Below, in pieces: positions 2,375-24,218 of a DNA stretch of 40,000 nucleotides. The first letter of the stretch is position 1. Every line of letters begins with the position of its first letter. The stretch covers positions 184,749 to 224,748 of the forward strand of contig JAFWCU010000035.1 in assembly GCA_017534305.1 (NCBI GenBank), in the 5' to 3' direction. Position numbers and translations under genes: made by a program. Origin of the DNA: Clostridia bacterium (GTDB taxonomy: Bacteria; Bacillota; Clostridia; TANB77; CAG-465). Below the pieces are notes generated by a model. That model ran no database searches and was not told the DNA's origin. It saw only the letters and a program-made list of their open reading frames with translations.

Positions 2375-3403
2375 CTATTCTAATGAATACTCATCAGTAA
2401 GATTACCAACAATTTCTTCTACAGCGTCTTTTAGTGTTATAACACCAGCCATTCTATTTTCATCTTTAACAATTACCATAGCTTGTTTTTCAGATTGCAT
2501 CATTCTAAAAATATCATCTATTTTATCATTTATATCAACAAAGTATGGCGTATGCATAGCTGTTTTATAGTCTAATTTTCCATTTTGTGAATATCTAATA
2601 AGCAATTCTTTTACAACAAGAATACCAACAATATTGTCCATCTTATCTTTATATACTGGTATTCTTGAAAAATTACAATTCTTTATAATGTGTAGTAGTG
2701 CTTTTTCACTAGTATAAGTATCTATAGCAATAACTTTCTCACGAGGTGTCATTACTTTTTCAGCTGTAGTATCATCAAACTTAAATACTTTAAGAAGTAA
2801 ATCTTCTTCTTCCATATCTATTATTCCTTCGGTTCTTCCGCGAGAGATAATAGAGATTATTTCATTTTCTGTAATAGTATCATCAGTCTTCTTCTTTATA
2901 CCTAAAAGCTTACATACAAAGTTTGTAGTTGTACTAAGTAGTATTACTATTGGATAGAATATCTTTTGAAAAATAGTAATAGGAAAGCTACAGAAGTATG
3001 CTACCTTTTGTGGAGAAACAAGAGCTATTCTTTTTGGAACAAGTTCACCAAGTATTAATGTAAAGAAAGATAATACTAAAGTAACAAGTATAATTAGTAT
3101 TGTTTCAGTAGAAGAAAGACTAAGTGGAATAAGTGGAGCAACTACTTGTGCAAGTTTTTCAGCAAGAGTTTCTGCGGCAAAAGCACTAGACAAGAAACCA
3201 ATTACTGTAATACTTATCTGTATAACTGCTAAAACATTACTTGAATTTTCTAATAATTTCTTAACTCTTTTTGCTTTTTTATTTTCTTGCTTAATATCAT
3301 TATCTAACTGGATTTTATTGATAGATACAAACGCCATTTCAGATGCAGAAAAAAATCCATTAATGAGTATTAAAACAAAAAGCAAAACAATTTTCAATAT
3401 CAT
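2375..3403 (-). CDS. DUF21 (CNNM) + CBS-pair membrane protein (hemolysin/CorB-like family)
   Basis: Start moved to the internal ATG at 3403 (MILKIVLLFVLILINGFFSASEMAF, the canonical DUF21 N-terminus), with RBS GAAGGATG at about 3413-3419. Four TM segments are followed by a CBS pair. The protein ends at EIVGNLTDEYSLE, so it appears to lack a CorC_HlyC C-terminal domain. Confidence 0.8.
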   Translation of the reverse strand: MILKIVLLFVLILINGFFSASEMAFVSINKIQLDNDIKQENKKAKRVKKLLENSSNVLAVIQISITVIGFLSSAFAAETLAEKLAQVVAPLIPLSLSSTETILIILVTLVLSFFTLILGELVPKRIALVSPQKVAYFCSFPITIFQKIFYPIVILLSTTTNFVCKLLGIKKKTDDTITENEIISIISRGRTEGIIDMEEEDLLLKVFKFDDTTAEKVMTPREKVIAIDTYTSEKALLHIIKNCNFSRIPVYKDKMDNIVGILVVKELLIRYSQNGKLDYKTAMHTPYFVDINDKIDDIFRMMQSEKQAMVIVKDENRMAGVITLKDAVEEIVGNLTDEYSLE

Positions 3404-3652
3404 ATAATCAACATCCTTCAATAATAAATTATCATATAATATGAAAATATACAACCAAATAGATAATATATAAGCACATAAAAAATATTATACTTTTATG
3501 TTGCGTATTGAAAAATAAGACAAAAATAAATATTACAATTACATAACAAATGAAAAAGCGAGCAATTGTTCTTGATTTTTCTTAAAAAGTATAGTATAAT
3601 ACAAATAGTAAAAACGAACATAAATTTTTTTAGTAAACAACCTCTACGGTAA

Positions 3653-6375: not shown

Positions 6376-7689
6376 ATGTATTGTTCAAAATGTGGAAATG
6401 AAATTAAAGATGGTTCTCTTTTTTGTGATAAATGTGGAAATAAATTAGAGATGCCACAAGAAGCAAAAGAACCAGAAACTACTTCGCAAGAAGTAGTAGA
6501 AGAAGTTACTCCAAAACAAGAAGGAGTAACAGAAGATAGACTAGATGAAATACTTAGTATGTTAGATGAAAAAGAAGAAAAGGTTGAAGAACCTATTGAA
6601 GAAAAAGTAGAGGAAAAAACTGAAGAAGTTGAAATCCCTATAGTTGAAGAAACTAAAGAAGAGGTTAGTCAAGATAGATTAGACGAAATTCTAGGTATGC
6701 TAGATGAAAAAGAGGAATCAAAAGAAGAGGAACAAACAGTTGAAGAACCTGTTCAACCTCAAGAACCAGCACCTGTTGTAGAACCTCAACCAGTTCAACA
6801 AACAATAATACAAGAGCCTGTTGCTACAACAATTGTACCTGAAGCAAATAGAGTAGCAACTGAAGTTGTTTCAAAACCTGTTACTCAAAAAGTTGAAGAA
6901 CCAAAAGCACCTGAAGCTAAAAGTAATTCACCACTTGGCTTAATTTCAATGATAATTGGTATTGCATGTATACCTTTAGCTTTCTTTATTAAATTATGGA
7001 CTATTCCTGTAGCTATTGTAGGCATCATAGTTGGAGCATGTCATAAAGGAAAAGATAATAAAAAGACAGCAGGTATTGCTTTAAGTGCTGCAAGTATTCC
7101 AATTGCTGTTATTGTAGCAATTGTTGCAGGTATATTTGGACTTGTTGGAGGACTATTTAATTTAGCCGGAGACGCTATAAAAGAAGAAATTAAAACTCAA
7201 ACTCAAACAGAAATTGAAACAAAATCATTGGTATATAAAGGCGATGGCTTTACTTTTAACTATAACTCAAATTGGAGCATTGTAAAAAATGATGACGGTG
7301 ACTATTTAGATTATAAAGATCAAGGAGATTACCTAGTTCCAGTAGAAATTATTAGTCTTGTTGATGAAGATGGTGCTGATGATGTATCTACAAAAGAAGG
7401 AAGAAATTCTTTTTACTCATATTTATTGGATTATTGGATCCAAGAATATGAAGGCACAAATGTTACAATAAAAGGAGATTCTAATTTTAAATATCTAAAA
7501 GATGATTTGTATTATGCAACGTATACATATGAAGATAAAGATAATAATAGAAAGGGACACTATATAATTATAGCTTCAAAAGATAATAACTCAGTCTTAA
7601 CAATGGTAACTTCGTGTTCAACAATGGACCCTGAAGAACTAATGGATGAAGTTGAGATAATTTTAAAAACTTTAGAAATGGTCAAATAA
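6376..7689 (+). CDS. zinc-ribbon membrane protein with an acidic repeat linker and an extracytoplasmic C-terminal domain
   Basis: N-terminal CxxC-x12-CxxC (MYCSKCGNEIKDGSLFCDKCGN). A duplicated [ED]DRLDEIL[SG]MLDEKEE segment and a P/Q/E-rich linker. Three TM helices. RBS TAGGAGG. Confidence 0.7.
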   Translation: MYCSKCGNEIKDGSLFCDKCGNKLEMPQEAKEPETTSQEVVEEVTPKQEGVTEDRLDEILSMLDEKEEKVEEPIEEKVEEKTEEVEIPIVEETKEEVSQDRLDEILGMLDEKEESKEEEQTVEEPVQPQEPAPVVEPQPVQQTIIQEPVATTIVPEANRVATEVVSKPVTQKVEEPKAPEAKSNSPLGLISMIIGIACIPLAFFIKLWTIPVAIVGIIVGACHKGKDNKKTAGIALSAASIPIAVIVAIVAGIFGLVGGLFNLAGDAIKEEIKTQTQTEIETKSLVYKGDGFTFNYNSNWSIVKNDDGDYLDYKDQGDYLVPVEIISLVDEDGADDVSTKEGRNSFYSYLLDYWIQEYEGTNVTIKGDSNFKYLKDDLYYATYTYEDKDNNRKGHYIIIASKDNNSVLTMVTSCSTMDPEELMDEVEIILKTLEMVK

Positions 7690-7731: not shown

Positions 7732-7771
7732 AAAGGGATATTAGAATCAAATCTAATATCCTTTATTTTTT
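7732..7771. terminator. bidirectional rho-independent terminator
   Basis: AAAGGGATATTAGA-atcaaa-TCTAATATCCTTT hairpin with one bulged G and T-runs on both sides. It closes both the + strand zinc-ribbon gene and the minus-strand RNA/oapA-like unit. Confidence 0.8.
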
Positions 7772-7787
7772 AGTTTAATGTATGTAA

Positions 7788-8351
7788 CTATTTATCTTTC
7801 TTTTTAAAACTAAAAATTCCTAAGACTTTTGTAAATCTATCAACTATTTTATTACTGTGAGCTTGAGCAACAAGTTTAAAACCTGCTTTACCACCAATTG
7901 TAAGCGATGCAACTAATGCTGAAATGATTACTTGCATATTTATTGGTAAGTTATATCTCTCAGTAATTTTTAATGCAATTATTGTACCTACGGCACCACT
8001 TATGATACCACATACGTCACCAATTACGTCGGCACATATACTAGATAGTTTGGGAGCATTCCTAATAAGTTTTATTGAAGTTTTAGCTCCGTCTAATTTT
8101 CTACTTGCTTTAGAATGGAATTCTTTTTCCTCAGCATAGTTAACAGCCATGGAAATCATATCAAAAAGAATACCAAGAGCTATAACAAGTAATAATACTA
8201 AAATTGCAATAGGTATAGGTAGTATATTTACTGTCTCAGTTGCAATAAATGAGAAAACTATTGACAGTATAAATGATAAAAGCGACACTGTCGCTACCCA
8301 TTTACCAGTTGAACTATTATCTTTCTCATTTTTTGAATCTTGCGATTTCAT
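7788..8351 (-). CDS. oapA: small four-TM membrane protein, OapA-like (putative OLE-RNA-associated protein A)
   Basis: Start set at ATG 8351 (MKSQDSKNEK...), preceded by RBS AAGGGGAG. 187 aa with four predicted TM helices and a DVIGD motif in TM3. It is co-oriented with and immediately downstream of the structured RNA, with no terminator between them. The family call rests on synteny and architecture only. Confidence 0.6.
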   Translation of the reverse strand: MKSQDSKNEKDNSSTGKWVATVSLLSFILSIVFSFIATETVNILPIPIAILVLLLVIALGILFDMISMAVNYAEEKEFHSKASRKLDGAKTSIKLIRNAPKLSSICADVIGDVCGIISGAVGTIIALKITERYNLPINMQVIISALVASLTIGGKAGFKLVAQAHSNKIVDRFTKVLGIFSFKKKDK

Positions 8352-8399
8352 ATTTATATTATCTCCCCTTAAAAGCAATAATAAGATGGTGATTTTTTA

Positions 8400-8978
8400 A
8401 GTAAATACTATGGTTTAGGTCCAGTAGAATTTCTCTGCAATCTACTAACCATTGCTAGTTAGCCGTTTCCGTTTAAAGACAACACATGGGGGTTACCCCT
8501 ACCATGAACTGGATCGCCACTTAAATCCATACTTTAATCCTTAAAAAATCTTATCCTTTTGGACAAACATCCTAGAAGTTTTCCTTTGGTGTGCACTGTA
8601 CAATTACTAGTCTCTTTTGCAGTGTAAATTTCATTACCAGGTATCAAGTTATAATTGGCCACATATAACTTCATACCATTTTAACGGGTAAATCCCAATA
8701 ACACCACTCAAGACAGGCTACGCTACATATTGTGTCTTGGCACTCAATGTAGGGTTTTACTAATTGTGTCTATCATCATATTTAGAACTTTTAGCCTCAG
8801 CGAAAATAGGATGCGGTATTATATGCCATTATAATCTACTCCTAAATTCTTTACTCCCAGAGTACACGCAAAACTGGGCGTTTCGCGCATAGACCAGAAA
8901 CTTCATCGGTATGCCTACTAGTGGATTTTTAGCCCCACCCTCGTAAAAGTTCGTGCAACTAGAATAATGCACCATCAC
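8400..8978 (-). ncRNA. ole: large structured non-coding RNA, probably OLE (ornate, large, extremophilic) RNA
   Basis: No ORF of 60 aa or more on either strand. G+C rises sharply (8461-8520 is 31/60 G+C, against 10/60 for 9061-9120). There are multiple GC-rich helices, including the GNRA-capped hairpin at 8485-8506. A dedicated promoter lies at 8984-9012. The RNA is followed by an oapA-like gene. Ends are approximate: the 5' end is inferred from the -10 box and the 3' end is undefined. Confidence 0.65.
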
Positions 8979-8983
8979 ATATT

Positions 8984-9012
8984 ATTATACCACAATTGAA
9001 TCAAAAATGCAA
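8984..9012 (-). promoter_or_regulatory. sigma-A type promoter driving the large ncRNA
   Basis: On the minus sense: TTGCAT (9012-9007), a 17-nt spacer, then TGgTATAAT (extended -10, TATAAT at 8989-8984). The predicted TSS is about 8976-8978. Confidence 0.7.
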
Positions 9013-9189
9013 GTTGATTGCACATTAAAAGGATTACATAAAACATATAACACAGATATAGAGCCAGTTATATGAATTTTTGTTTTTTTATAAAAAAGAA
9101 GAAAATTATAAAAAAATACAAAAATTTATACTTTTATCTTTTCTTTTTTGTAATTTATGGTAAAATCTTTGTCAGAGGTGATATATACT

Positions 9190-10163: not shown

Positions 10164-10388
10164 ATGCAAGGTATTGTAGATAGAATAGAGGATGATATTG
10201 TAGTAATAGAAGCAGAAGGTACTATGTATAACGTAGATATCGAACTTGTTGAAGACGAAATTTCTGAAGGAGACGTAGTAGATATTGAATTTGCGGATAA
10301 CGAGATAATCTGTGTAACTAAAGATTATTCACAAACCAAAGAGCGAGAGGCGTATATAGAAGAGTTAACTCGAGATATGTGGGAATAA
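10164..10388 (+). CDS. DUF3006-like small protein
   Basis: 74 aa starting MQGIVDRIEDDIVVIEAEG. It is a typical small partner gene immediately after ComEC-type MBL genes, 2 nt after the preceding stop. Confidence 0.6.
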   Translation: MQGIVDRIEDDIVVIEAEGTMYNVDIELVEDEISEGDVVDIEFADNEIICVTKDYSQTKEREAYIEELTRDMWE

Positions 10389-10432
10389 TAATTAAGGAAA
10401 TAAAACATAAATATACTGTAGGAGGTATGTTT

Positions 10433-11125
10433 ATGTTTTTTTCTTATTTACTACAATTATTTACGAGTCTTTTTGGACTATTTGGATATATATCACAAGA
10501 CAAATTATATCCAGAACCTTTAAGTAAGACTGAGGAAGAATATTATTTAAGAAAATACTTTCAAGGGGATAAAGATGCAAGAAATATTTTAATTGAACAC
10601 AATTTAAGACTTGTTGCACATATTGCTAAAAAGTTTACAGATGATAAACAAGAACTAGAAGAATATATTTCAATAGGCACCATTGGACTAATAAAGGCCA
10701 TAGACAGCTTTAAAGAGAACAAGGGGTATAAGATTAGTACTTACGCTTCAAGATGCATAGAAAACGAAATATTAATGAATATACGAAGTTCGAAAAAGAT
10801 AAAACAAGAGGTTTCACTAAATCAAGTAATTGGAACAGACAAAGATGGAAATGACATGGAACTAGAAGATACACTTGTAATACAAGAGAAAGACTTTGCA
10901 GATTCAATACATGATAGGACAATGCTAAAACAAGTATTATCTTTTATGGATAAAAATCTAGATGATAGAGAAAAGTATATTATGAATAAAAGATATGGAA
11001 TAGATGGAAATAAAGCAAAAACACAACAAGAGTTAGCTTCAGAACTTGGAATATCTAGATCTTATGTATCTAGAATTGAAACTAAAATACAAGATATGTT
11101 AAATAAAGTATTTAAATCCCAGTAA
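10433..11125 (+). CDS. sigK: RNA polymerase sporulation sigma factor K (pro-sigma-K), uninterrupted
   Basis: LIEHNLRLVAHIAKKF, ISIGTIGLIKA, YASRCIENEILM and GISRSYVSRIE closely match the B. subtilis SigK regions. A hydrophobic pro-sequence precedes YPEPLS. Start chosen 7 nt after GGAGG (the alternative ATG is at 10427). Confidence 0.85.
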   Translation: MFFSYLLQLFTSLFGLFGYISQDKLYPEPLSKTEEEYYLRKYFQGDKDARNILIEHNLRLVAHIAKKFTDDKQELEEYISIGTIGLIKAIDSFKENKGYKISTYASRCIENEILMNIRSSKKIKQEVSLNQVIGTDKDGNDMELEDTLVIQEKDFADSIHDRTMLKQVLSFMDKNLDDREKYIMNKRYGIDGNKAKTQQELASELGISRSYVSRIETKIQDMLNKVFKSQ

Positions 11126-13506: not shown

Positions 13507-14064
13507 TTGCAGGTAAAAAGACGGAAGTTTATCTTGCTTTTGTTATTATTCATAATAATTACGATTTTTACAATTTTCAGTTATTCAAATATATACAAGA
13601 TTAATGTAAGTGATTATCCTCCAAAAACAATTAATCTAGAAAATATCAATTTATATCAAGACGACAAAAATTTTATTCAAAAAGATGAATGGACATTATC
13701 CATTCCAATTTTAAATCTATATAATATCCCCATAATAGATAGTATTGAGGTAGATAAATTAGAAGACTATATAGGTCATTTCCCCATAAGTTCATATTTA
13801 AAAGGCAATATTTGTTTAGCAGCACATAATGATGGCTTTAAAAATAATTATTTTAAAGATATTAATAGCTTATGTACTGGAGACAAATTAATATATTCAT
13901 ATAATAATATAGAAAAATCATACTATGTAGATAGAATATATACTATATCTAGTACAGATTTTTCGTTTTTAAACTTAGATCAAAAAGATAAATTAACTCT
14001 TGTTACCTGTATTTCAAACTCACCTCTTATAAGGCTTTGTGTAGAAGCAGTAAATAAGGAGTGA
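13507..14064 (+). CDS. sortase (cysteine transpeptidase), membrane-anchored
   Basis: TTG start after AAAGGAGGTGA. N-terminal TM helix. Catalytic His in LAAHN, the TLVTC active-site motif (LTLVTC) and a downstream Arg (LIRLC). Confidence 0.85.
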   Translation: MQVKRRKFILLLLLFIIITIFTIFSYSNIYKINVSDYPPKTINLENINLYQDDKNFIQKDEWTLSIPILNLYNIPIIDSIEVDKLEDYIGHFPISSYLKGNICLAAHNDGFKNNYFKDINSLCTGDKLIYSYNNIEKSYYVDRIYTISSTDFSFLNLDQKDKLTLVTCISNSPLIRLCVEAVNKE

Positions 14065-14068
14065 TTAC

Positions 14069-15607
14069 ATGACAAAGGTATACGAGTATAAAGATTCAAT
14101 GCTTGGATTAATACACAAAAAAAGAAGAAGAATATTTGCATATTTAAGACAAAACCAAATTAAAAGAATTAAAGCAATATTACTCATATTAGTAGTTGTA
14201 TTTTCAAATTGCTCAATTTTTGCAGTAGAAAATAACAATATTAACTATGGAAAATATAAAATAAATGTTGTTAAAGACCCCTTTATGTACGTTATATTTA
14301 ATGGAGTAATGCAACCAAATTATATGTATAGTTACTCAGATGAAGAAGAAAGATGTGTATATTGTTTAGAAAGAGGAAAAGTTGGGCCTGAAAGCAAAGA
14401 TGAGTATTTTGTAGATGCTAAAGAAAAAATAACAGATGAAATGCTACAGCTAATATTATTAAATTGTTATCCATACAAAAGCCCAGAAGAGTTAGGCCTA
14501 ATGTCAATTGAACAAGCAAAATTTGCTTCTCAGTTTGCTATTTGGTGTTATACATCTGGTGTGAATATAGATAGCATAGAACCTATTAGTGATTTAAATT
14601 TAGACATGATACAAGCAATTAAAAAAATATATTATTCAAAAGATGGTAATTTAGATGACTACAAAGTAGACTTAAATATCAAAGAAGACAAGATGCAAAT
14701 AGAAAATGGATATATAACTAAAACTCTAGAGCTAGATACAAAGAATATCTTAGAGTATAACATCACAACTTTAGATAGTAATATATCCATAAAAAAAGAA
14801 GAAAATAGGTATAAGATATATTTACCATTAGATAAGATAGAAAATAAATATAGCACATCTTTAAAAATAGAATACAAAGCAAAAGAGAATATTTCACTAC
14901 TTGGTAAAAAAGAAGATGCAAATAATCAAGATATGGCTGTACTTTTAGATACTACATTTAATGGTCAAGATAGTTATATTTTAAATTTTGCAGTAACTAC
15001 AACAGATTTTACTTTGCAAAAGATAGATAAAGATACAAAAGAACCATTAAGTGGAGTGGAATATAGCATTACAGATAATAACAATATAGACTATGGTACA
15101 AAAGTAACAGATGAAAACGGAAAACTAACTTTAAAAATTAAATATGTTGATGGTGCAAATATAATTGTTAAAGAGGTAAAAAGCAAAGAAGGATATGTGT
15201 GTGATACAAATCCATATATATACCAATTAAAAGGATGCCCAGTATGCAATGAAATACTAGAAAACGAAAAAGAAAAAGGGATAATTCAAATAATAAAAAA
15301 GACTAAGGAATACAATAAAGCAACAGATATTAAAGAGAATTCTCCTCTTCAAAACGTTGAATTTGAAATATTAGATAGCAATATGAATATAGTCCAAAAA
15401 GTAACAACAGATGAATATGGATACTGTAAAACAGAGAGAATTCCAATTGGAAAGTATTATATCAAAGAGACAAAAACAAATCCAAATTATGAACTGTTAA
15501 AAGAATTAGTTGAAGTAGAAATAAAAGATAATGATGATCAACTGCTAGTTCAAATATTGAATGATAATGCTACTATTTTAAATGAATTGCCAGTTACAGG
15601 AAAGTAA
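14069..15607 (+). CDS. surface adhesin: thioester (TQxA) domain followed by two SpaA/CnaB-like Ig-fold domains and a C-terminal LPVTG
   Basis: Candidate thioester Cys in VYCLERG and Gln in SQFAIW (TQxAIW-type motif). Repeats FTLQKIDKDTKEPLSGVEY...VKEVKSKEGY and IQIIKK...VEFEIL...YYIKETKTNPNYEL. The protein ends ...NELPVTGK followed by TAA TAA. The gene is 4 nt after the sortase gene. Confidence 0.8.
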   Translation: MTKVYEYKDSMLGLIHKKRRRIFAYLRQNQIKRIKAILLILVVVFSNCSIFAVENNNINYGKYKINVVKDPFMYVIFNGVMQPNYMYSYSDEEERCVYCLERGKVGPESKDEYFVDAKEKITDEMLQLILLNCYPYKSPEELGLMSIEQAKFASQFAIWCYTSGVNIDSIEPISDLNLDMIQAIKKIYYSKDGNLDDYKVDLNIKEDKMQIENGYITKTLELDTKNILEYNITTLDSNISIKKEENRYKIYLPLDKIENKYSTSLKIEYKAKENISLLGKKEDANNQDMAVLLDTTFNGQDSYILNFAVTTTDFTLQKIDKDTKEPLSGVEYSITDNNNIDYGTKVTDENGKLTLKIKYVDGANIIVKEVKSKEGYVCDTNPYIYQLKGCPVCNEILENEKEKGIIQIIKKTKEYNKATDIKENSPLQNVEFEILDSNMNIVQKVTTDEYGYCKTERIPIGKYYIKETKTNPNYELLKELVEVEIKDNDDQLLVQILNDNATILNELPVTGK

Positions 15608-23466: not shown

Positions 23467-23832
23467 GTGGCAAATAATATAATTATGGATATAGTTGCAA
23501 ATATAATAATTGGATTTACAAATGGAATATTTTCAAGTGGTGCTGGTCAAATACTTCTTCTATACTACATATATTTTAAAAAATATGATTCTAAAGATAT
23601 AAGAAACCTAAGCCTTATAATTATGCCATTAATCTCGATTCCATCTTTGATTTATTACTTTTTAAAAATTGATATTAATACAAAAGAAATTGCTATTTTA
23701 TGCATAATCTCAATCATATTTGGAACATTAGGAAATACAATAATGAAAAAGATGAATTCAAACATCTTAAACTTAATTTCAGGAGTTATATTGGTAGCTA
23801 TTACAGCAATTAATATGTGGTGTGTAAAATGA
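23467..23832 (+). CDS. half-size TauE/SafE-like membrane protein (first of a tandem pair)
   Basis: About 4 TM helices and a glycine-rich N-terminal helix IIGFTNGIFSSGAGQILL. The start is uncertain (GTG 23467 or ATG 23485, both with a weak RBS). Confidence 0.5.
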   Translation: MANNIIMDIVANIIIGFTNGIFSSGAGQILLLYYIYFKKYDSKDIRNLSLIIMPLISIPSLIYYFLKIDINTKEIAILCIISIIFGTLGNTIMKKMNSNILNLISGVILVAITAINMWCVK

Positions 23833-24218
23833 TCTATTTAATATCAATCATATCCTCTTTTTTATCTGGTTTAGGTGTTGGTGGGGGATCATTATTTGTT
23901 TTGATACAAATAATGGCTAAAAAACAAGATTTGAATCAAATAAGGGCATATAATTTAGCAATGTTTATTTCTATTGGACTAGTACTTGCAATAAAAAACA
24001 AAAATGAAATAAAAGGATTAAAAATTAACAAGTTTTCAATAATAGTATTTGCAGCTGTTGGCTCAATTATTGGTGCAAAAATTGGTAATAAAATTAATGA
24101 AAATATAACCAAAAGAATATTTAATATTTTTATGCTAATCATTGGATTTTATGAAATAATTGTCAGTTTAAAAAGAATTAAAAATGCCAAGAATAATAAT
24201 GTGAAAGGAGATAAGTGA
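23829..24218 (+). CDS. half-size TauE/SafE-like membrane protein (second of a tandem pair)
   Basis: The ATG at 23829 overlaps the upstream stop (ATGA). FLSGLGVGGGSLFV is the TauE signature. 4 TM helices. Confidence 0.55.
   Translation: MIYLISIISSFLSGLGVGGGSLFVLIQIMAKKQDLNQIRAYNLAMFISIGLVLAIKNKNEIKGLKINKFSIIVFAAVGSIIGAKIGNKINENITKRIFNIFMLIIGFYEIIVSLKRIKNAKNNNVKGDK

Follow-up and report, generated by a model that had tools for sequence, protein, structure and literature searches.

An ole-oapA unit of the OLE RNA family in an uncultured gut Clostridia bacterium

An OLE RNA upstream of a membrane protein gene

A structured segment lacking long open reading frames (ORFs) and a gene for a 187-aa membrane protein lie in tandem on the minus strand of the DNA stretch analyzed here, 40,000 nt of contig JAFWCU010000035.1 from an uncultured gut Clostridia bacterium (positions 184,749 to 224,748 of the contig; hereafter the window, in whose own numbering all coordinates are given). 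The pair is preceded by a promoter sequence and closed by a terminator (Table 1), and had been read in an earlier note, made from the sequence alone, as an OLE RNA with its OapA-type partner gene or, failing that, as a new large non-coding RNA. The structured segment matches the Rfam covariance model of OLE (RF01071) at 8991-8370 with a score of 376.8 bits and an E-value of 2.4e-107, the gathering threshold of the model being 50 bits. The match spans model positions 1-616 of 616, poorly conserved flanks included, is not truncated, and is the sole one found by scanning the whole window with Rfam 15. The OLE/OapA reading is borne out, and the fallback is excluded, the RNA being a member of a known family. 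The locus is an ordinary ole-oapA unit of the already catalogued OLE family, which counts about 2,800 representatives, gut clades known from metagenome-assembled genomes (MAGs) among them (PMC11332333). We regard it as nearly certain that the window carries an ole-oapA transcription unit to which the ribonucleoprotein (RNP) model of the family applies.

The composition of the segment is as the earlier note had described it. No ORF of 60 aa or more is found between 8400 and 8980, the longest on both strands being 49 aa, and the G+C counts made by hand (31/60 at 8461-8520, 10/60 at 9061-9120) are exact. The RNA proper has a G+C content of 38.3% vs. a window mean of 29.0%, and is the richest in G+C among all the 592-nt stretches of the window. 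Folded alone, 8976-8385 reaches a minimum free energy (MFE) of -158.1 kcal/mol (z -2.77), and many consensus helices are recovered by this unaided thermodynamic fold. The host fits the range of OLE RNAs (Bacillota, typically anaerobic or extremophilic), all of the 80 related loci belonging to Clostridia or Clostridium MAGs; SigK and a spore-cortex-type hydrolase are encoded in the window.

The consensus structure was monitored in a MAFFT alignment (A2) of 62 related OLE RNAs, to which the figures on relatives given below refer unless another set is named. In the window RNA, 133 of the 149 pairs of the Rfam consensus (89%) are canonical and 16 are non-canonical. Cells are paired at 87.7% across the alignment, vs. 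37-50% after displacement of the partners by 1-3 columns. The projection of the structure took the row of the window itself as its basis, a choice which flatters the proportion of paired cells and leaves the counts of compensatory changes unaffected. Compensatory changes on both sides were observed at 93 of the 149 pairs, and the covariation score (0.315) exceeds the shuffled mean (0.161), none of 500 shuffles scoring as high. The consensus helices therefore covary among homologous loci, the comparison that the earlier note had proposed.

The ends of the RNA are joined by a terminal helix, P1, which is not annotated in Rfam and is formed by GAUGGU (8976-8971) and ACCAUC (8390-8385). P1 is 99.7% paired in the 62 sequences, shows compensatory changes at three of its six pairs, and has a score matched by none of 500 shuffles. 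As P1 brings together the 5' and 3' ends, the functional RNA is bounded at about 592 nt.

The P2 hairpin is 99.5% paired in the relatives, with a loop invariant throughout the alignment. The two long hairpins of domain 1 carry the loops GCCCA (8879-8875, P5/5.1) and AUGGCA (8829-8824, P6/6.1); helices 2-4, corresponding to these hairpins, are 90-99.7% paired, with compensatory changes at 19 pairs. The P5.1 and P6.1 loops make published monomer-monomer kissing contacts (PMC12265935), and the numbers P5/5.1 and P6/6.1 were assigned here by order and by the description given in that paper. P8 measures 30 nt, the full length of the model, and its basal pairs covary. The P9 arm (105 nt) is also of model length, and exposes the palindrome GGCC at 8660-8657. 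In the relatives the P9 loop reads GGCC in 52 cases and AGCU, another palindrome, in four, and is absent in six, the distal part of P9 being missing in 6 of 62 sequences. Palindromic covariation between GGCC and AGCU supports an intermolecular kissing loop (PMC12286853), and the counts in the relatives reproduce this pattern. Domain 2, as a whole of model length, includes P13 (8506-8485) and a GCAA-capped hairpin (8463-8444); helices 14-20, which make up this domain, are 71-100% paired (87-100% if the 2-pair helix 18 is excluded), with compensatory changes at 36 pairs.

Four helices had been singled out in the earlier note as examples. All four are formed by complementary segments, but only 8506-8485, which is P13, belongs to the consensus structure. 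The others (8446-8441/8428-8423, 8739-8733/8715-8709 and 8878-8874/8860-8856) conflict with consensus helices and were rejected, their covariation score (0.063) being close to the shuffled mean (0.066), with 394 of 500 shuffles as high. One of these pairings, between CAAGACA (8739-8733, apex of P8) and UGUCUUG (8715-8709, base of P9), is complementary in 94.6% of cells with no compensatory changes. This proportion is uninformative either way, because both segments are simply conserved; they could form an alternative pairing, or be just two conserved segments.

Table 1. Features of the ole-oapA locus in window coordinates
Feature	Start	End	Strand	Evidence or remarks
-35 element TTGCAT, 3/6 match to TTGACA, TTG kept	9007	9012	-	sequence
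Extended -10 element TG-g-TATAAT, 17-nt spacer from the -35	8984	8992	-	sequence
RF01071 match, including poorly conserved flanks	8370	8991	-	376.8 bits
OLE RNA proper, about 592 nt, bounded by P1	8385	8976	-	covariation, 133/149 canonical pairs, MFE
5' hairpin GGUGGG[GCUAAAAA]UCCACU, P2 by position	8920	8939	-	6/6 pairs canonical
Two long hairpins of domain 1	8802	8900	-	P5/5.1 8900-8854, P6/6.1 8849-8802
Shortened hairpin, P7 by position	8760	8794	-	35 nt vs. 45 in the model
Hairpin with conserved apical GUGCCAAGACAC, P8 by position	8723	8752	-	9/13 pairs canonical
Long P9 arm, apical palindrome GGCC at 8660-8657	8610	8714	-	30/35 pairs canonical
3' domain (domain 2), closed by 11-bp helix 8550-8540/8401-8391	8391	8550	-	45/46 pairs canonical
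P13 hairpin CAUGG-UA-GGG[GUAA]CCC-CCAUG	8485	8506	-	8/8 pairs canonical
oapA ribosome-binding site AAGGGGAG, 14 nt past the 3' end of P1	8363	8370	-	sequence
oapA, 187 aa, four transmembrane helices, stop included	7788	8351	-	homology, DxxxD, gene linkage
Two-way intrinsic terminator	7728	7764	.	stems 7733-7764 (+), 7761-7736 (-), then T-run

OapA and the transcription unit

OapA proteins have a mass of about 21 kDa, four transmembrane (TM) helices and a basic cytoplasmic loop. In BLASTP comparisons the 187-aa protein and a published OapA share 33% identity along 164 aa (E 5e-27); the latter sequence, obtained by machine reading of a PDF (Kretsch et al. 2025, Supplementary Table 4; PMC12286853), may contain small errors. 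A comparison of this kind had been proposed in the earlier note, and the match is accompanied by the DxxxD motif, a hallmark that separates OapA from CNNM domains (PMC11332333). The motif, D108-V-I-G-D112 (encoded by 8030-8016), is aligned with the DVIGD of the published protein and is invariant in 23 homologues. Four long hydrophobic helices (residues 12-43, 46-81, 90-133 and 137-164), followed by a short C-terminal helix, are seen in the AlphaFold model (predicted local distance difference test, pLDDT, 71), in agreement with the four TM segments noted before. K, R and H are frequent in the loop formed by residues 75-101, where K85, K90 and K101 are nearly invariant. When the model is compared with the PDB by Foldseek, the five top-ranking entries all prove to be membrane domains of the CNNM family (CorB 7m1t and 7m1u; CorC 7cff and 7cfg), a result in line with the CNNM-like fold published for OapA, for which CorB 7M1U is the top match (PMC11332333).

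OapA resembles the CNNM Mg2+ transporters MpfA, CorB and CorC in fold, and some OapA homologues have precomputed PF01595 matches. The two groups differ in that OapA features four rather than three TM helices, the DxxxD motif and an RNA partner, and is devoid of CBS and CorC/HlyC domains. The possibility that the 187-aa protein is itself an MpfA/CNNM transporter was rejected: it shows no PF01595, CBS or CorC_HlyC match at E 10, and ends after the fourth TM helix. Profile comparison of OapA with the CNNM-CBS protein encoded elsewhere in the window gave a weak alignment (probability 12.5%).

Linkage to ole was analyzed in 80 related loci, found by scanning one genome per species and located in uncultured Clostridia or 'Clostridium sp.' gut MAGs. 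A full-length OLE RNA resides directly upstream of the homologue, on the same strand, in each of the 15 loci tested with Rfam; with an nhmmer profile, OLE was found directly upstream in 79 of the 80 loci, the remaining one having no upstream DNA. Homologues of the protein are accordingly seen only with ole in all the 79 informative loci. The protein collection holds 1,136 homologues, while the assembly index contains no protein identical to that of the window.

The promoter reported in the earlier note (TTGCAT, 17 nt, TGgTATAAT; 9012-8984) is present. It was not listed by a generic promoter scan, because its -35 element matches the consensus at 3 of 6 positions only, and its conservation was assessed in 77 relatives aligned on the conserved TGGTGCA. 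A perfect TATAAT ends 8-10 nt upstream of TGGTGCA in 71 of the 77 loci, vs. 1.8% of positions drawn at random from these loci; a TTG-type -35 element lies 16-18 nt upstream of the -10 in 65 loci, and the extended TG is found in 41. Transcription is predicted to start at a purine within 8980-8976, 0-4 nt before P1, in which case no 5' processing would be needed. A dedicated ole promoter has been reported in Halalkalibacterium halodurans (PMC9723947); what is gained here is that about 77 gut Clostridia species point to a start essentially at P1.

The RNA and oapA are likely to be co-transcribed. P1 and the ATG of oapA (8351) are separated by 33 nt, the ribosome-binding site AAGGGGAG (8370-8363) falls within this gap, and the terminator scan revealed nothing resembling a terminator from the end of the RNA to the ATG, as had been stated before; because of these three features, co-transcription is the natural reading. 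Downstream of oapA, the two-way terminator predicted in the earlier note was found at 7733-7764 (+) and 7761-7736 (-), and closes the ole-oapA unit as well as the upstream gene convergent with it. The unit can thus be annotated cleanly from promoter and RNA ends to oapA and terminator.

Two further candidate signals were discarded. One is a promoter-like site at 8405-8378, of a kind no more frequent than chance would produce (11 sites found vs. 9.9 expected). A terminator-like hairpin, AGCGAC-AGT-GTCGCT followed by a T-run, lies at 8295-8281 (-), 56 nt into oapA, and was considered as an attenuator uncoupling RNA and protein; early-oapA hairpins occur in 6 of 64 relatives vs. 9.3% of controls, with no shared register, and the hairpin is probably due to chance.

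Type of OLE RNA, alternatives and mode of action

Three types of OLE RNA have been distinguished by Fernando and Breaker (PMC11332333): the full-length RNA, which predominates; variant 1, found in the TANB77 clade, in which P7-P9 are short and P13 no longer offers the OapB site; and variant 2, of the RF39 clade, made without P7 and P8. Judged from its sequence, the window RNA is closest to the full-length type, by virtue of its full P8 and P9 and of a bulged P13 capped by GUAA. Variant 2 does not apply, since the P7 and P8 hairpins are both present, nor does variant 1, since P7 alone is short, and P8, P9 and the GNRA-capped P13 are retained. The window RNA shares with variant 1 the uncultured gut host and the short P7. 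Most of the 62 relatives, having no GNRA-capped P13, fit variant 1, from which the window and its nearest relatives L001-L006 differ by their full-size P8 and P9 and GNRA-capped, bulged P13. A GNRA loop on P13 was found in just 10 of the 62 sequences, namely the window, L001-L006 and three others, the P13 of the remaining relatives being variable AU-rich hairpins. This distribution suggests that an OapB-type site has been kept in the lineage of the window and lost across most of the clade.

The locus was compared with the best known systems. It shares with H. halodurans the RNA family, with a full-length model match, the tandem order ole then oapA, the four TM helices and DxxxD motif of OapA, the GNRA-capped P13 and the dedicated ole promoter (PMC9723947). 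In H. halodurans, however, ole resides within a large housekeeping operon, whereas in the window it is part of a free-standing two-gene unit; the window RNA, in addition, is AT-rich (38% G+C), with a shorter P7 and a 2-nt bulge in P13, and no oapB or oapC was found nearby. The OLE RNAs of Clostridium acetobutylicum and C. botulinum, known as dimers from cryo-electron microscopy (cryo-EM; PMC12286853, PMC12265935), also come from the class Clostridia, have a similar length (577 nt in C. acetobutylicum), and feature the same GGCC palindrome in P9, which makes a symmetric kissing contact, as well as the same GCCCA (P5.1) and AUGGCA (P6.1) loops. They differ from the window RNA in apical P7 and P13. 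Family, partner gene, reduced gut-clade variants and dedicated promoter have all been published, and to these the copy described here adds little.

Several data weigh against the assignment to a typical OLE-OapA complex. P7 is the weakest stretch of the Rfam match: 8 of 13 model pairs are retained, six of them canonical, deletions relative to the model are found, and the helix is 50% paired in the MAFFT alignment. The P7 region is known to vary (PMC11332333). P13 has a GUAA loop and a 2-nt UA bulge located 3 bp below the loop, while H. halodurans OapB needs a GNRA loop accompanied by a bulge of one nucleotide (PMC7936274). Neither OapB (KOW) nor OapC (L7Ae) was found by Pfam, PDB search or tblastn in the 40 kb of the genome that the window covers. 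The 187-aa protein has no match in Pfam or NCBIfam even at E 10, and sequence searches of the PDB returned chance-level matches to membrane proteins only; the Foldseek scores are weak (E 0.03-0.37), as is the confidence of the model on which they are based (pLDDT 71). With Pfam, NCBIfam and PDB silent, the evidence for membership in OapA consists of a single published sequence, the motif, the fold and gene linkage. Ends, processing, abundance and localization of the transcript, finally, are deduced.

Some of these data could be accommodated by assuming that the window RNA is one of the published reduced forms, perhaps acting with fewer protein partners, an assumption which we deem unlikely. 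In favour of it, the host genome is a gut Clostridia MAG, uncultured and rich in AT, P7 is short and weakly matched, 52 of the 62 relatives have no GNRA-capped P13 and six no distal P9, and oapB and oapC were not found in the window. Yet neither P8, at 30 nt, nor P9, at 105 nt and bearing the GGCC loop, is shorter than in the model, P13 keeps both GNRA loop and bulge, and in an RNA totalling 592 nt just one variant-1 trait is present. It is very improbable that the structured segment is mainly a cis-acting leader which controls translation or stability of oapA, with no separate functional RNA. The 33-nt gap between P1 and the ATG, which contains neither a terminator nor a convincing promoter, would suit a leader. 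About 25 covarying helices and conserved dimerization loops, however, exceed the needs of a leader; in the family OLE RNA is abundant, stable, membrane-bound and needed in its own right (PMC9723947, PMC12265935), and 10 of 64 relatives have a terminator-like hairpin between ole and oapA.

Least probable of all, to the point of being negligible, is a decaying or non-functional OLE copy, as reported in rare genomes without OapA. A degenerate P7 and 16 non-canonical pairs among 149 might be taken as signs of decay, but oapA is intact and carries the invariant motif, the promoter is intact, 89% of the consensus pairs are kept and the invariant nucleotides of the clade are all present. The closest genome, moreover, has the same locus, and the differences between the two are compensatory rather than random. 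Neither frameshifts in oapA nor loss of conserved loops was seen.

In the ole-oapA unit, transcription would start from the sigma-A-type promoter (9012-8984) 0-4 nt before P1, and the transcript would comprise the 592-nt OLE RNA (8976-8385) and continue through oapA (8351-7788) to the terminator (7761-7728). By analogy to H. halodurans and to two Clostridium OLE RNAs, the RNA may be released or stabilized as a discrete and abundant species. It may dimerize by conserved loop-loop contacts, including that mediated by GGCC at 8660-8657, and dimers of OapA, the four-helix membrane protein, may bind the RNA and hold it at or in the cell membrane. Following the same analogy, the complex could help the cell to withstand excess Mg2+, short-chain alcohols, cold and poor carbon sources. 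Discrete RNA, dimerization, OapA binding and role in stress are known at the family level, from experiments on H. halodurans and cryo-EM of the two Clostridium RNAs (PMC12265935, PMC9723947, PMC12286853).

Neighbouring genes

The genome nearest to that of the window, L001 (CAMVON010000003.1, 'uncultured Clostridiaceae bacterium'), is syntenic, with neighbouring proteins 94-100% identical and OapA 97% identical. None of the classic operon neighbours of H. halodurans was found in the 40-kb window. On one side, ole-oapA is flanked by divergent genes for a ComEC-like metallo-beta-lactamase, a DUF3006 protein and sigK; on the other side reside the convergent gene for a zinc-ribbon membrane protein and genes for DUF3137, pentapeptide-repeat, M23 peptidase, CNNM-CBS and TelA proteins.

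The CNNM-CBS protein (359 aa; 2375-3454, -) features a CNNM domain (PF01595, 165.6 bits) and CBS, but no CorC/HlyC domain, and is encoded 4.3 kb from oapA. In L001-L005, too, the same gene lies about 0.1-5 kb from ole-oapA. MpfA-type proteins are reported to anticorrelate with OLE across Bacillota, some genomes carrying one copy (PMC11332333). Because the neighbourhood is conserved in spite of this general mutual exclusion, the OLE RNP and this truncated MpfA-like transporter might cooperate, or split one task such as divalent-cation export, in the genus-level group formed by the window and L001-L005. We consider this unlikely; were the idea correct, such a group would lend itself naturally to a test of whether OapA/OLE and MpfA are, as has been proposed, functionally equivalent.

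In the segment 9157-10388 (+), the metallo-beta-lactamase gene encodes a stand-alone protein of 334 aa, whose similarity to ComEC/Rec2 is confined to the C-terminal domain (positions 443-663 of TIGR00361), and is followed by the DUF3006 gene and then by sigK (10379-11125). The trio is divergent from ole in the window as in L001-L005. The convergent gene (6376-7689, +) encodes 437 aa, with an N-terminal zinc ribbon, a long acidic region rich in E, P and V and containing internal repeats, and membrane segments. This protein is 64% identical to its counterpart in L001, vs. 94-100% for the neighbours, and appears to be evolving fast.

A tRNA gene lies directly 3' of oapA, on the same strand, in three relatives (L024:5657-5729, L041:5602-5682 and L072:5548-5627). 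A gene for bS21 (rpsU), a ribosomal protein known as a component of the OLE RNP, was found about 4 kb downstream of oapA in L017 (6648-6800; tblastn E 4e-13).

Two more loci of the window are worth recording. At 13507-15607 (+), a sortase gene precedes that of a 512-aa protein carrying thioester and SpaA-type domains, an arrangement reminiscent of a small pilus or adhesin cassette. A pair of neighbouring ORFs of 121 and 133 aa with a slight overlap (23467-24218, +) match, each of them, the same C-terminal half of the TauE/SafE sulfite-exporter profile (about positions 130-236 of 237), and may encode a pair of half-size subunits.

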